Sequence record: OZ346175.1
DNA length: 64,000 nt
Origin: a phage
Direction: 5' to 3' (one strand)
Both the position numbers and the translations under genes were made by a program. Positions 11,260 through 24,402 of the stretch are shown here, one piece after another. Each line of letters begins with the position of its first letter. Position 1 is the stretch's first letter. A model generated the notes under the pieces. The model had not been told where the DNA came from. It worked only from the letters and a program-made list of their open reading frames with translations, and ran no database searches.

Positions 11260-19275
<8,016 letters not shown>

Positions 19276-19277
19276 TA

Positions 19278-20426
19278 ATGGCAGTAGGTGAAATTCAAAT
19301 TAGTGCCTTGCCTCAAGCAGCCTTACCAATTGACCTTAGTGATATCTTCCATCTTAAACAGGGTATCGAGGATAAGAGATGCACTCTTGAGCAATTACTT
19401 GCTCCACACTCAAGCCTAAGAAATAACCCTCATGGTGTTACTAAGACACAAATTGGTTTAGATAACGTTATTAATGCTCTCCAGTTAGTTGCTGAAAATA
19501 ACTTATCAGACATTGTTAATGTAGCTGAGGCAAGAGCAAATCTACAGATTATGTCTTCAGAAGAGGTTAATAATCTTATTCAACAACATATTGATGATAA
19601 GAGCAACCCACACAATACCACTAAGGCACAGGTTGGGTTAAGTAATGTTCAGAACTGGGTGACATCTAACCTTTATAACGAGGATGCAGATAAGTATGCT
19701 ACAGCAAGAGCAGTAAATAACTTGTACAAGGCTGTTCAGGCTTCTTATCCAGTAGGTACTATCCATCTCTCTATGAATCCTGCAAACCCTTCTACATATT
19801 TAATTTGTGGAGGTACTTGGGAGTTAGTTTCAAAAGGAAGAGCACTTGTAGGTTATGATAGTGCTTCTAGGCCAGTTGGTTCAACGTTTGGTTCGCAGAC
19901 TACTGCACTGACAGTTAACAACATTCCTGCACATACTCACTCAGTATACGTCACTGGTGGTGGTCACACACACGGTGCAACGGCCTCTATCAGTGCTTTT
20001 GACTACGGTACTAAAGGGACTACAACGTTTGACTATGGAACAAAGACTGTATCTACTTATGACTATGGTAACAGAACAACCAGTGCTGCTGGTTTAACAC
20101 AAACAACATTCATTAATCGTGGTTATGCTGATGGTGGTTGGAGAGGTTTATCAGTTGAGGGGGCAAGCTATGACCCAAGAGCTACGCTGACAACAGCTAA
20201 CAACCACACTCACTCTGTAGCAATTGGCGCGCATAATCACACAGTTGGGATTGGTGCTCACAACCATTCTGTTGCAATTGGTTCCCACAACCACTCAGCA
20301 ACAGTAACAGTAACCGGAGCAGGTGAGCATTCGCACTCTGGCACAACTGGCACAACTGGTTCTGGTCAAGCATTTAGCGTTGAACAGCCATCCTTCGTAT
20401 TGTATGTATGGCAGAGAACAGCTTAA
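19278..20426 (+). CDS. tail fiber / receptor-binding protein with His-x-His metal-binding repeats
   Basis: Collar-like segment (VGTIHLSMNPANPSTYLICGGTWELV) then six HxH motifs (HTHS, HTHG, HNHT, HNHS, HNHS, HSHS) and C-terminal ...GSGQAFSVEQPSFVLYVWQRTA. Confidence 0.8.
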   Translation: MAVGEIQISALPQAALPIDLSDIFHLKQGIEDKRCTLEQLLAPHSSLRNNPHGVTKTQIGLDNVINALQLVAENNLSDIVNVAEARANLQIMSSEEVNNLIQQHIDDKSNPHNTTKAQVGLSNVQNWVTSNLYNEDADKYATARAVNNLYKAVQASYPVGTIHLSMNPANPSTYLICGGTWELVSKGRALVGYDSASRPVGSTFGSQTTALTVNNIPAHTHSVYVTGGGHTHGATASISAFDYGTKGTTTFDYGTKTVSTYDYGNRTTSAAGLTQTTFINRGYADGGWRGLSVEGASYDPRATLTTANNHTHSVAIGAHNHTVGIGAHNHSVAIGSHNHSATVTVTGAGEHSHSGTTGTTGSGQAFSVEQPSFVLYVWQRTA

Positions 20427-20436
20427 TTTCTTTACA

Positions 20437-20456
20437 GGGGCTGTATAGCCCCTTTT
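20437..20456 (+). terminator. rho-independent terminator (weak, intercistronic)
   Basis: GGGGCT-GTAT-AGCCCC hairpin followed by TTTT. Confidence 0.5.
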
Positions 20457-20472
20457 AAGAGGAAAATTTATA

Positions 20473-22818
20473 ATGGCAGATTACAAGTTGAGTGAATTAA
20501 ATTCAATTGATACAATTTGTTCAGACGACCTCCTTCATATCAGGGTTAAAAAGAGACCTGAAATGCTGGGTGATGAAGACCGTCGAATGACCTATCAAGA
20601 TTTCTTAGCATCTTTTAAACTTGAAAGATTTGTTCAGATTGCTGGCAGCACTATGACTGGTGACTTAGGGATTGTTAAGTTACTTTATGGTGGTAAGGCA
20701 GTCTTTGACCCAACAGGCTCTTCTGAGATTACTATTGGGGATGTTTTAAAGACTTTTAAAATTAACGCAAATGGTCTTAAACTAACTATTGCAGATGCTT
20801 CAAGGTCGGCAACTGTTTATCATACTCTGAATAAGCCAAGCCCTAATGAGCTTGGGATGAGAACTAATGAAGAGAATGATGCAAGATATGCAAGGTTGGC
20901 TGTTACAAACACATTTAACTCTAAACAGACCATTGTAGCAAATGGGGAACAGTTAACACTAAGGTCTCCTGTGAGTGGGGATAGTGCATACTCTGCTATT
21001 GTAGGTAGGGATGCAAGTAATGAAAAAACTTGGGCTATTGGGAACCTGATTAGGGGTAGTCTTGATGTTCAAATCGAGAGTAAATTAGGTTCCATCCTCA
21101 CTCTAGGCACGGCTGCTTCTTTTAATAGGTCTTTATCAATCAATGGTCAAGTGCAACCCTCTGACTTCTCTAACTTAGATGCTAGATATTTTACTCAGAC
21201 AGCAGCTAATCGGAGATTTGCACAGTTAACTGGTAATAATACCTTTAGTGGTGCAAATGTGTTTAATGGCTTTAACACAATTAAACGTAATGGTGAAGTG
21301 TTAAGGTTGCAAAATTCATCAGTTAGCCAGCCATTGTACATCAAGGCTATTGACTCTTCTGGTGCTAACAGGTGGTATGTTGGATGCGCCAACGGCGGTG
21401 ATGATGTATCACTAGAGAATTACAAAACTGGTGGTAAACTCACTATTGGTTCAAATGCCGCTATCAATACAACACTAAAAATCACTGGTCAAGTTCAACC
21501 TACAGATTGGACTAACATTGACTCTAGATACATTCCAGCAGCAACATTAAGTACAATTGCAAGAACTAATGCAAGTAACACGTTCACTGCAAAGCAGGTT
21601 ATTAAAACTGATGGTGAAGCTCTTATGTTACAAGGAAAGACAACCGCAGCACTTTACATTAGAGGTAAGGACTATGATGGAACGAATAGGTGGTATGTTG
21701 GTAATAACAGTGAGAGTGACACTCTTAATGTATATAACTATAAAACTGGTAAAACCCTAAGCATTGGTTCCCAAGTAGAAATTAATGCAACACTAAAAAT
21801 CACTGGTCAAGTACAACCTAGCAACTGGTCTAACTTAGATGCTAGATACTTCACTCAGGCAGCAGCTAATCGGAGATTTATGTATGCAGGTTCTACAGGA
21901 GAAGCTACAGAGCAGAATGCAGATGGTGTGGCATGGAACGCTAAAACAGGCTTATATAATGTAACCTCAACAAATGCTGGTTACACAGCACTTGTGTTTC
22001 AAATGTATCAGGGGGTGACCTCTTCTACTGCCTGTGCGCAATTAAAGTTCCAGTATAAAAACGGTGGAATGTGGTACAGAACATCTGTAGATAGTAAAGG
22101 TTTTGAAGCTAAGTGGTCTAAGGTTTACACAGAGGCTCAGAAACCAACCCCTTCAGAGCTTGGTGCATACACTAAAGCAGAAACTAACCAGAAGATTGCA
22201 CAGGCAGTAAGTGACTCTACAGACCTTAACAAAATCTATCCAGTAGGCATTGTAACGTGGTTTAACAGTAATGTTAACCCTAATACAGTACTGCCTGGTC
22301 TAACTTGGACGTACCTCAACAATGGTGTTGGTAGAACTATCAGAATTGCAGCAGCAAATGGTTCAGATGTTGCTACAACTGGTGGTTCAGACTCTGTGAC
22401 GTTAGCTGTTGGTAACTTACCTTCGCACACGCACAGTTTTTCTGCGACTACCTCATCGTTTAACTACGGAACAAAAAACACTAACACGACTGGTGCTCAC
22501 GCTCACTCTGTAAGTGGCTCTACTTCATCTGCTGGTAACCACAACCATTCCATTTCGTGGATTGGTCAGAACTCTACACACTACTCTGGTGGTGGTGGTG
22601 GTAGAATTGGTGTGGGGCCGGGGTACACTGATGCAGGTGGTGCTCACACCCACACAATCTCTGGTACTGCTGCTTCTGCTGGTAACCATGCTCACAGTGT
22701 AGGTATCGGTGCTCACACTCATACAGTTAGTGGTAACACTGGTGGTACAGGTTCTGGTTCAGCATTTAGTGTTACTAACCAGTTCTACAAGTTAATGGCT
22801 TGGGTAAGAACTGCTTAA
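20473..22818 (+). CDS. long tail fiber protein with internal tandem repeats and His-x-His C-terminal domain
   Basis: 781 aa; three ~110 aa repeats; collar-like segment; six HxH motifs; C-terminus ...[22 protein letters not shown] paralogous to upstream fiber. Confidence 0.8.
20908..21900 (+). repeat. intragenic tandem repeats (3 units of ~330 bp) within tail fiber gene
   Basis: Near-identical 49-mer TAACTTAGATGCTAGATA(T/C)TT(T/C)ACTCAG(A/G)CAGCAGCTAATCGGAGATTT at 21171-21219 and 21831-21879; AAAAATCACTGGTCAAGT(T/A)CAACCT at 21476 and 21795. Confidence 0.7.
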
Positions 22819-22825
22819 TCCCTTG

Positions 22826-22854
22826 TTGACTGATTGTTAAGATGGTGTTAATAT
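22826..22854 (+). promoter_or_regulatory. sigma70-like promoter TTGACT-N17-TAATAT
   Basis: -35 TTGACT 22826-22831, 17-nt spacer, -10 TAATAT 22849-22854; upstream of 22898 ORF. Confidence 0.5.
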
Positions 22855-22897
22855 TCTTTATGGGTATTCTCACCATCTTGGCTGATGAGGTGATTAA

Positions 22898-23092
22898 ATG
22901 CCTACAATCCTAGCAATTCTTCTAAAAAATCTAGGTAGCTTCTTCTGGAAACTCATTTTATCCCTTCTAAGTGAATACATGATTGAGAAAGTGTTCTTTA
23001 AGCTTGCAAGATACCTTGCGAGTAAAACAGACACACCTATTGATGATGAGTTCGTAGATAACTTAGAAAAAGCTTTTAAGGGGGAGAAATAA
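22898..23092 (+). CDS. small membrane protein (holin-like?)
   Basis: 64 aa, hydrophobic N-terminal helix, SD GAGGTGA 7 nt upstream. Confidence 0.5.
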   Translation: MPTILAILLKNLGSFFWKLILSLLSEYMIEKVFFKLARYLASKTDTPIDDEFVDNLEKAFKGEK

Positions 23093-23464
23093 ATGAAGTG
23101 GCTAGAGGAAGCTTTTAAAAATAATATTGGTGCAATTGTAGTTGGTATTTTTAGTGTTATTGGGATGTATACCACGATGCAAGTTTCGGATGGTAAACAA
23201 GAAGTGTCTATCACAACAAAGTTACAGCAGCTAGATAATTATTCCAAAAGTAATTATTCAGCTATTCGTGATTTACAGTCTGATATGAGGCTGCTTCAGC
23301 TAGGGATGGAGAACCAGAAAGTCCAGTTAGAGAATGTTAAGGGAGAGAACGCAAAACTTACTAAGACTCTTGATAAATTCTCTGATAGTGTGAACAATCT
23401 GGCTCAATCAGTATCAGCCCTCCAAGCTATTACTGAGAAGAACACAAAGAATACTGAAAAATAA
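23093..23464 (+). CDS. membrane-anchored coiled-coil protein
   Basis: 123 aa, N-terminal TM segment IGAIVVGIFSVIGMY then heptad-rich helical domain; SD AAGGGGGAG. Confidence 0.5.
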   Translation: MKWLEEAFKNNIGAIVVGIFSVIGMYTTMQVSDGKQEVSITTKLQQLDNYSKSNYSAIRDLQSDMRLLQLGMENQKVQLENVKGENAKLTKTLDKFSDSVNNLAQSVSALQAITEKNTKNTEK

Positions 23465-23471
23465 AATTTTA

Positions 23472-23498
23472 AGGCTCCTTTTTACGGGAGCCTTTTTT
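23472..23498. terminator. bidirectional rho-independent terminator at convergent junction
   Basis: AGGCTCC-loop-GGGAGCCT hairpin with TTTTTT on + strand and A/T run on - side, between convergent gene blocks. Confidence 0.65.
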
Positions 23499-23502
23499 GT
23501 TT

Positions 23503-24402
23503 TTACTTACCTACTGATAAAGGTGCTTCAATCTTCCCTGCATGTTGGTAGTTGTTAATGCCACCAATAAAATCACTTGCAGTAAGGTGTTTTAGGTCAC
23601 TTAAAGTATTAAGTTGTAGACCAATCTCAAAAGTTGGTGCATGGAACTCTTCATTGTTCATCAGTTCATAAACCTGCTTCATATGATTCTGATAAATCTG
23701 AGTATCTCCAAAGACACCTATCAAGTACCGTGGAGTGTATCCAGTCATCTTACAAAGAACTTCCAGAATAAAACCATAAGATGCAATATTAAACGGAAGT
23801 CCTAAAAAGGTGTCTACTGAACGCTGATACCACTGTAAGTCAACTTCACCCTCGTTAGTAATATAAATCTGAAACAGAACATGGCAAGGTGCTAGAGCCA
23901 TTGAGTTTGCTGCAATATCTGCTGCATTCCAAGCATTCACAAGCATGTAACGGTCTGTGATATCACCCTTCATCTTCGTTACTAAGGTCTCTAGCTGGTC
24001 TACAACACAACCGTTATGACCTTCAAAGTTTCTCCACTGAACTCCGTAGATTCTTCCACCTGCATCTTCTAACCAATCTTGTTCAGAGGAATAGTTAGAG
24101 CTTAACCAACGTTTAAAATCATCTGACCAGATAGTCCAGCGTTCCCCATCATTTTCACCCCAAGTACGGTAACGGAGTTCGCCAAGTTTATTCTCACCAT
24201 TCAGGAACCATAAAGCTTCCCCAATAACTTGCCGCGTAAACACCTGTTTAGAGGTTAAGAGTGGGAAACCAGTTCTCATATCAAAACGAAACTGTGGTGG
24301 AGCAAATGCAGAGATAACATCCCCAGTTCGTGTAGTACGCAGTTCACCAACAGATAGAACATGGTTCAGGATATTTTTGTAACTCAAATCAGCTTGTGAC
24401 AT
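23503..24402 (-). CDS. thyA: thymidylate synthase
   Basis: ThyA signatures: FPLLTSK, GVQWR, APCH active-site Cys, YQRSVDTFLGLPFNIASY, GDTQIYQNH. Confidence 0.9.
   Translation of the reverse strand: MSQADLSYKNILNHVLSVGELRTTRTGDVISAFAPPQFRFDMRTGFPLLTSKQVFTRQVIGEALWFLNGENKLGELRYRTWGENDGERWTIWSDDFKRWLSSNYSSEQDWLEDAGGRIYGVQWRNFEGHNGCVVDQLETLVTKMKGDITDRYMLVNAWNAADIAANSMALAPCHVLFQIYITNEGEVDLQWYQRSVDTFLGLPFNIASYGFILEVLCKMTGYTPRYLIGVFGDTQIYQNHMKQVYELMNNEEFHAPTFEIGLQLNTLSDLKHLTASDFIGGINNYQHAGKIEAPLSVGK

Follow-up and report, generated by a model that had tools for sequence, protein, structure and literature searches.

The 64,000-nt stretch of phage DNA analyzed here (sequence record OZ346175.1, hereafter the window) carries at positions 19278-22818 two complete, adjacent plus-strand open reading frames (ORFs), whose limits coincide exactly with the interval that an earlier sequence-only reading had put forward as two paralogous tail fibre genes. 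They are referred to as gene A and gene B, are separated by a spacer of 46 nt on the same strand, and close a long plus-strand block of baseplate genes. Megablast of the region retrieved 239 phage records, nearly all of them Felixounavirus of Escherichia, Salmonella, Citrobacter or Shigella (closest record at 94-95% identity across 94% of the query), and because almost all matches belong to this genus, the window is assigned by similarity to a Felix O1-like myophage of E. coli, genus Felixounavirus. A is the orthologue of Bas63 gp26, Felix O1 gp76 and Sf14 gp52, and B that of Bas63 gp27, Felix O1 gp77 and Sf14 gp53, so both genes are indeed tail fibre genes, namely those of the short tail fibre (STF; PHROG 2097) and the long tail fibre (LTF; PHROG 4277) of the genus. 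The feature is real, ordinary and already known: it is the described Felixounavirus STF/LTF pair with tips of the T4 gp37 type that carry histidine-x-histidine (HxH) motifs. C-terminal similarity to T4 gp37 was noted for Felix O1 gp76/gp77 in 2010 (PMC3185647) and for VpaE1 gp74/gp75 in 2015 (PMC4690856), and it was published again in 2025. The genes and their segments (aa, amino acids) are as follows.

19278..20426, + strand: gene A, STF, 382 aa (ORF; 98% identity to bas63_0026, gene order kept; phrog_2097 tail fibre, E 3e-127)
19278..19712, + strand: A aa 1-145, N-terminal region that binds the baseplate, with a short shaft (conserved among 63 orthologues)
19713..19931, + strand: A aa 146-218, collar domain of T4 gp10 C-terminal/gp37 collar type (Pfam Gp10_C; aligns with the 2XGF collar and gp10 structures 2FKK and 5HX2)
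19932..20060, + strand: A aa 219-261, ascending needle strand, two HxH (H219/221, H230/232), then FDYGTK repeats (aligns with T4 gp37 AHSHS...FDYGTK)
20061..20204, + strand: A aa 262-309, hypervariable apex comprising the head domain and the distal needle, predicted receptor-binding site (entropy, discrete head types)
20205..20342, + strand: A aa 310-355, descending needle strand, five HxH, 9-aa (27-nt) HxHxVxIGA repeat (motif positions; T4 gp37 alignment)
20343..20423, + strand: A aa 356-382, C-terminal tail GTTGTTGSGQAFSVEQPSFVLYVWQRTA, conserved (all orthologues 73-79% identical to the window)
20473..22818, + strand: gene B, LTF, 781 aa (ORF; phrog_4277 full-length, E 0; 68% identity to bas63_0027)
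20473..20892, + strand: B aa 1-140, N-terminal region that binds the baseplate (platform), conserved (67 orthologues, 92-99% identical to the window)
20893..21882, + strand: B aa 141-470, shaft, three repeats of ~110 aa (Pfam gp37_trimer three times, PF20744, E 2e-53, three stretches; DNA repeats D1, D3, D6, D9)
21883..22227, + strand: B aa 471-585, Mu S/S'-like domain (Pfam gp37_C, PF12604, E 5e-20), the fourth variable module and a conserved connector
22228..22425, + strand: B aa 586-651, collar domain (Pfam Gp10_C; nearly invariant in orthologues; aligned with the A and T4 gp37 collars)
22426..22548, + strand: B aa 652-692, ascending needle strand, three HxH (652, 676, 690), one FNYGTK
22549..22644, + strand: B aa 693-724, head domain, predicted receptor-binding apex (discrete head cassettes among orthologues)
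22645..22728, + strand: B aa 725-752, descending needle strand, three HxH (725, 739, 748)
22729..22815, + strand: B aa 753-781, conserved C-terminal tail (~100% conserved, 67 orthologues; paralogous to the A tail)

Minus-strand ORFs of 62-65 aa within A and B were taken as chance ORFs. The tips of the two proteins are paralogous, as the sequence-only reading had stated: BLASTP aligned A157-382 with B589-781 at 29% identity (E 2e-12), and hhalign of 63 A-orthologues against 68 B-orthologues gave a probability of 99.9% and E 5.8e-33 over 192 columns. The shafts differ, as proposed earlier. No N-terminal paralogy between A and B was detected by either BLASTP or hhalign; for the N-termini of the two fibres, the literature gives structural similarity alone. 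The collar-like segment that both were said to share corresponds to Pfam Gp10_C (PF21939), which is clear in A (154-259, E 1e-17) and stands at the threshold in B (586-693, E 1e-5, 26.8 bits, marginally under the 27-bit gathering cut-off). The common end is also read directly from the sequences, with A terminating in GSGQAFSVEQPSFVLYVWQRTA and both proteins following the pattern GSGxAFSV...W-RTA.

In a phmmer run against all PDB sequences the top match of both proteins was the T4 gp37 tip 2XGF (A, E 4.1e-14; B, E 1.1e-17), followed in the case of A by the T4 gp10 C-terminal domain, and the profile of the 63 A-orthologues matched 2XGF with E 8.3e-27. An alignment of T4 gp37 785-1026 with the tips of A and B brought into register the collar (YP-G...P), the first HxH, FDYGTK, the head-flanking HxH, VGIGAH-H-V and the terminal R-x-A, and in it the T4 gp37 end ...NIAFNYIVRLA aligned with the C-terminal tail of A. 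Homology of both tips to the gp37-type receptor-binding tip (collar-needle-head) is supported by these comparisons. T4 gp37 is like A and B in its collar, the HxH needle on both strands, FDYGTK, VGIGAH and the hydrophobic tail to R-x-A (tip identity 33-39%), but it belongs to a fibre of four proteins (gp34-37), whereas A and B each carry the tip on a fibre encoded by one gene (382 and 781 aa); its head is unrelated to the window heads, though some relatives carry T4-like heads, and no gp38 gene adjoins the fibres here. The T4 sequence compared comes from a mutant clone, whose gp37 head reads AISHRAGG instead of the AISYRAGG of 2XGF. Beyond T4, tblastn of the B tip retrieved 534 phage records, and the core of the HxH needle recurs in lambda Stf, P2-like and T-even gp37 fibres at 42-53% identity; this core is common to the lambda Stf, P2-like prophage and T-even His-box fibres, while collars, heads and shafts differ.

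The likeness to T4 tips had been claimed for gp12 as well as for gp37, and only the gp37 half is borne out (2XGF, E 4e-14 and 1e-17). No gp12 chain in the PDB matched at E<=1, and hhalign of both profiles against T4 gp12 gave 1-2% probability; the detectable T4 relatives are gp37 and the gp10 C-terminal domain. The C-terminal domain of T4 gp12 has one HxH-coordinated Zn. T4 gp12 (PDB 1H6W/1OCY) is alike in role, being a baseplate-attached short fibre, but the sequence relation is undetected, it has one HxH site where the fibres here have a multi-site needle, and its folded position is beneath the T4 baseplate, not along the sheath. The collar regions of gp12 and gp37 are similar according to the literature (PMC3004832).

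Among the relatives, Escherichia phage JohannRWettstein (Bas63) shares its gene order with the window (two wedge genes, then platform, STF and LTF, two small ORFs, convergent td/frd). Its gp26, at 98% identity to A, has the same seven HxH and the same head. Its gp27 is 68% identical to B, with B residues 1-148 and 553-781 almost identical (termini ~95-100%), the N-terminus, collar, needle, head type and C-terminus nearly as in B, and a shaft (aa ~150-550) that is ~35-45% identical to that of B because the window phage carries other alleles of four shaft modules; the head-proximal motif is HHxH in Bas63 and NHNH in the window phage. The two-fibre arrangement is the same in Sf14 (gp52/gp53), Felix O1 (gp76/gp77) and VpaE1 (gp74/gp75) and is found across Ounavirinae, although the tips of these phages are more distant from the window (~50-77% identity) and their hosts and lipopolysaccharide (LPS) specificities differ. 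Cryo-electron microscopy (cryo-EM) of Bas63 from 2025 revealed an STF (gp26) of 430 Å and an LTF (gp27) of 630 Å, each showing a collar, an HxH needle and a head, and both seated on the baseplate (PMC12609058); both fibres are likewise present on the baseplate of Sf14 (PMC11821841). While the orthology, the gp37-tip homology, the motif anatomy and the conservation pattern are observed here, the arrangement of domains and the joint presence of the two fibres come from this published cryo-EM of relatives and would apply to the window phage by analogy.

The number of HxH motifs had been given as six per fibre, which is correct for B (starts at residues 652, 676, 690, 725, 739 and 748) and one short for A, where there are seven (219, 230, 310, 319, 328, 337 and 351). 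The contexts HTHS, HNHS and HAHS that had been listed are present, together with HTHG, HNHT, HSHS and HTHT. HxH was counted in 20,000 shuffles per protein, with means of 0.99 (A) and 0.27 (B) over the whole protein and 0.91 and 0.67 over the last 230 residues, and the observed counts were reached by 0 shuffles. In A, H219/221 and H230/232 are invariant (63/63 orthologues), and the ascending-strand histidines of B are kept in 64-68 of 68 orthologues. At aa 261-266 A has YDYGNR, a third and degenerate repeat, and a 27-nt direct-repeat family (D2) covers the descending strand at 20205-20300. Most STF orthologues have nine HxH (four ascending, five descending); in the window/Bas63 type, which has seven, the degenerate FDYGTK-like repeat (YDYGNR) and a larger His-free apex stand in place of the two ascending motifs next to the head.

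Taken together, A is very probably the STF and B the LTF of a Felixounavirus, both carried on one virion and both ending in gp37-type HxH tips with a metal-bound needle and receptor contact at the apex. Each fibre would be a homotrimer, with six STF and six LTF per virion. The N-termini would be anchored to the wedge protein in the case of the STF and, in the case of the LTF, to a trimer of the 100-aa platform protein encoded just upstream; in Bas63, the STF N-terminus lies on domain 2 of wedge-2A monomers, wedge 2 serves for STF attachment and wedge 1 for attachment of the platform, and the gp25 platform trimer, a functional analogue of T4 gp9, is the attachment point of the LTF (PMC12609058). 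At the distal end, the three chains of the gp37-type tip would leave the collar as a thin needle, turn in a small head and come back to the collar, giving a six-stranded needle, the path that is summarised for the gp37 chain from Bartual 2010 in PMC12609058. Each HxH, contributed by three chains, would place six imidazoles around one axial metal ion (Fe2+ in T4 gp37), with seven ions predicted in the STF and six in the LTF riveting the needle. By analogy with T4, the LTF may scan reversibly and the STF commit.

The position of the receptor contact is suggested by the conservation pattern. Column entropy among the 63 STF orthologues is mostly 0.5-1.3 bits and rises to 2-3 bits at residues 271-310, whereas the last 22 residues are highly conserved, and the identity of the A apex to the window among orthologues is 10-27%. 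The LTF tip (68 sequences) varies only at 686-728, with discrete head types; in this part (aa 686-728) B is 84% identical to Bas63. This pattern suggests that the specificity site is the apex, at about 262-309 in A and about 693-724 in B, and by homology the AFSV...W-RTA end would return to the collar as a structural strand and would not itself be the tip that contacts the receptor. The earlier notion of the C-terminal domain as a receptor-binding tip is sustained by the gp37-tip homology, with the qualification that its conserved extreme C-terminus would lie at the collar as a structural strand and that it is the hypervariable head, at the apex of the hairpin, that would touch the receptor.

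The receptor is likely the LPS core, since Bas63 has nearly the same two tips and relies completely on the LPS core being intact (PMC12609058). For VpaE1 the receptor is inner-core LPS (PMC4690856), and a 2026 preprint of a genome-wide receptor screen gives Felixounavirus no specific receptor and lists it as a clade recognising O-polysaccharide or LPS moieties. The main text of the PhageMaP paper on Bas63 gene essentiality is silent on gp26/gp27 (PMC11482910). Because the two window heads are unrelated (longest common string 6 aa), the dual receptor specificity suggested by the sequence-only reading, in the sense of two ligands or epitopes, is plausible; which fibre binds what, and the order of events, are inferred.

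It could also be that only the LTF is a true receptor-binding fibre, with the STF acting mainly as a strut or trigger along the sheath and its tip touching the sheath of the phage itself and not the host. In Bas63 the head of the retracted STF lies between domains of the sheath at its tenth ring, and the occupancy of the STF does not vary (PMC12609058). Moreover, at 90% identity the STF forms clusters of 100 to ~350 members, while almost all LTF clusters are singletons, so that the LTF appears to diversify much faster. However, the apex is the most variable part of the STF (entropy ~3 bits) and occurs in many discrete head types, including T4 gp37-like ones, which fits diversifying selection by host receptors, whereas constancy would be expected of a surface that touches a conserved sheath protein. 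We regard a pure strut function as improbable and retain receptor contact at the apex of both fibres.

Heads also appear to move between genes. In other Felixounaviruses, identical head/distal-needle stretches of 25-36 aa are common to STF and LTF genes (e.g., HTHTVGGRYGGDSIGGKQRVQVSGT), and T4 gp37-like heads (EHSHYIEAWNGTG...YRAGG) occur in some STFs and LTFs of relatives, which implies that heads have been exchanged between the STF/LTF paralogues and with T-even phages. That T-even fibres swap heads at their conserved His-box repeats is a classical idea, and such exchange was reportedly described by Tetart et al. in 1998.

The same stretches, with T4-like heads in both fibres and exchange within or next to the HxH repeats, would also be expected if the motifs had no metal role and were His-box repeats kept for the beta-structure of the needle and as recombination sites for head swapping; the DNA-level repeats of the HxH region (D2, D5) would fit. 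The histidines are, however, far more conserved than their neighbours (91% in A and 98% in B, vs. 38% and 79% for other needle residues) and than the middle x of the motif (32% in A, 61% in B). Where a motif is lost, both histidines are lost together; the head-flanking pairs 690/692 and 725/727 of the LTF are each missing in four sequences. Conservation above the neighbours and the middle x, together with joint loss, suggests that the His pair is selected as a functional unit, as expected of a metal site, and argues for selection on protein and not on DNA identity. In addition, the homologous T4 gp37 needle binds seven iron ions by seven HxH, each motif from three chains holding one axial Fe, as Bartual 2010 is cited in PMC12609058. 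The two roles are not mutually exclusive, and we consider it hardly probable that the motifs serve structure and recombination without metal; metal binding by the HxH motifs of A and B is inferred from the T4 homologue.

The alternative fibre sets of the sequence-only reading, in which one fibre is used per virion or cycle, as with Mu S/S' through G-segment inversion, and two host ranges arise from one genome, can practically be dismissed: A and B are adjacent and paralogous with differing heads and B contains a Mu S/S'-like domain, but the two genes share a strand, are 46 nt apart and come with no invertase, inverted repeats in 18500-24000 amount to one chance-level pair (22 nt, 77% complementary), cryo-EM of Bas63 and Sf14 places both fibres at distinct baseplate sites of the same particles (PMC12609058, PMC11821841), and Felix O1 proteomics found gp77 and, at low coverage, gp76. 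A Mu-type invertible fibre cassette was likewise rejected, with no flanking inverted repeats and no opposite-strand alternative gene present. Mu has a U/U'-type chaperone gene and an inversion switch, whereas B is without either and its Mu-like domain is internal and followed by a gp37-type tip; no Mu-type chaperone homologues were reported for Sf14 (PMC11821841).

Several points weigh against the reading of A and B as receptor-binding fibres with metal-bound gp37-type needles. No metal has been measured or seen in Felixounavirus fibres, and the fibre density of Bas63 was too poor for side chains and left metals unresolved, its low-resolution architecture being consistent with a gp37-type tip (PMC12609058). 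The ascending and descending HxH are split 3+4 in T4 gp37, 2+5 in A and 3+3 in B, and because of this difference the metal-site geometry would not be an exact copy of T4. The AlphaFold2 monomer model of A, built from the 63-sequence alignment and ill-suited to an intertwined trimer, had a mean predicted local distance difference test score (pLDDT) of 61 and a predicted template modelling score of 0.26 (collar pLDDT ~83, needle and head 40-65), and Foldseek of this model against the PDB returned nothing below E 0.07, with weak gp10 matches alone; the model speaks neither for nor against the fold. No gp38-like or Tfa-like chaperone gene adjoins the fibres (two downstream ORFs examined), because of which their folding may differ from that in T4. 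Finally, the literature consulted on Felixounavirus assigns a receptor to neither fibre separately.

Regarding the remainder of the STF, the shaft motif NPHxxTKxQ(I/V)GLxNV occurs twice, at aa 50-64 (19425-19469) and aa 110-124 (19605-19649). The profile of the A-orthologues matches a solved "short tail fiber gp92" (PDB 9ZD7, E 7e-14) at profile positions 70-95, an adjacent shaft segment.

The LTF shaft (aa 141-560, window 20893-22152) is, as judged from comparison with 67 relatives, a mosaic of cassettes. Variable modules at 141-220, 261-336 and 366-442 alternate with conserved linkers of ~25 aa, which at the DNA level are repeats (21138-21219 and 21798-21879, 82 nt, 85% identity), and a fourth module (471-560) follows; in each of the four, relatives are either 92-100% or 18-68% identical to the window, in varied combinations. 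The combination of shaft modules in the window was found in no single database protein, the best match to B being 93% identical overall and 68% in module 1. Residues 472-576 of B, which match residues 327-427 of the Mu fibre S/S' structure 8JU3 (phmmer E 1e-17), form an internal domain directly before the gp37-type collar and vary in a cassette-like manner (18-99% identity); homology to Mu S/S' and to gp37_C/gp37_trimer fibres is accompanied in B by three gp37_trimer repeats. Low conservation of the shaft domain was noted in the Bas63 paper, with shuffling undescribed (PMC12609058). Combinatorial LTF cassettes and head exchange between the paralogues are the sole modestly new material here. 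The shaft modules could conceivably be second-site surfaces for host contact or for evasion of defence or sensing, under diversifying selection, and not passive spacers, which would explain discrete alleles reshuffled between phages at conserved linkers, but we hold this to be rather doubtful. Some LTF homologues carry public labels that seem erroneous ("Methanobrevibacter gottschalkii", "Staphylococcus phage SA1 (UNVERIFIED_ORG)", "protein tyrosine phosphatase").

The neighbouring genes upstream of A, and a hairpin in the spacer, are listed below.

16644..18973, + strand: baseplate wedge genes, a 489-aa Baseplate_J protein (= Bas63 wedge 2) and a 285-aa DUF2612 protein (= Bas63 wedge 1) (Pfam, PHROG; gene order as in Bas63)
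18973..19275, + strand: 100-aa platform gene upstream of A, Bas63 gp25 orthologue (phrog_4141 full-length, E 4e-62; position as bas63_0025)
20437..20452, + strand: spacer hairpin GGGGCT-gtat-AGCCCC, then TTTT, directly upstream of the B ribosome-binding site AAGAGGAAA

The spacer hairpin was found by direct reading of the sequence and was not called by a consensus terminator scan; it could be a weak terminator, an attenuator or an mRNA-stabilising element. Promoter and terminator scans of 18500-23700 gave no more sites than shuffled sequence, except for a strong, bidirectional terminator-like hairpin at 23471-23494 (AAGGCTCC...GGAGCCTT, T-runs on both strands), which sits where the late structural block meets the minus-strand genes for thymidylate synthase and dihydrofolate reductase. 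Downstream of the LTF, two small ORFs of 64 and 123 aa with hydrophobic N-termini occupy 22898-23464; their matches are PHROGs of unknown function (402, 4038) and a faint Rz-like spanin match.

For the biology of the phage, the comparison gives a firm annotation: the STF and both tips are almost the same as in the structurally characterised Bas63, and adsorption should likewise depend on the LPS core. No new question is opened by the HxH tips themselves, as gp37-like tips of Felix O1-type fibres have been in the literature since 2010 and were imaged in 2025. Engineering of host range would best target the apex segments, A 262-309 and B 693-724, and not the C-terminal ends. If the shaft modules do contact the host, host range in the genus would be encoded combinatorially along the whole fibre and not by the tip alone. 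The shuffling of shaft modules at linkers, together with head exchange among STF, LTF and T-even fibres, could guide the design of rational fibre chimeras in this phage group, which is used in Salmonella and E. coli biocontrol.

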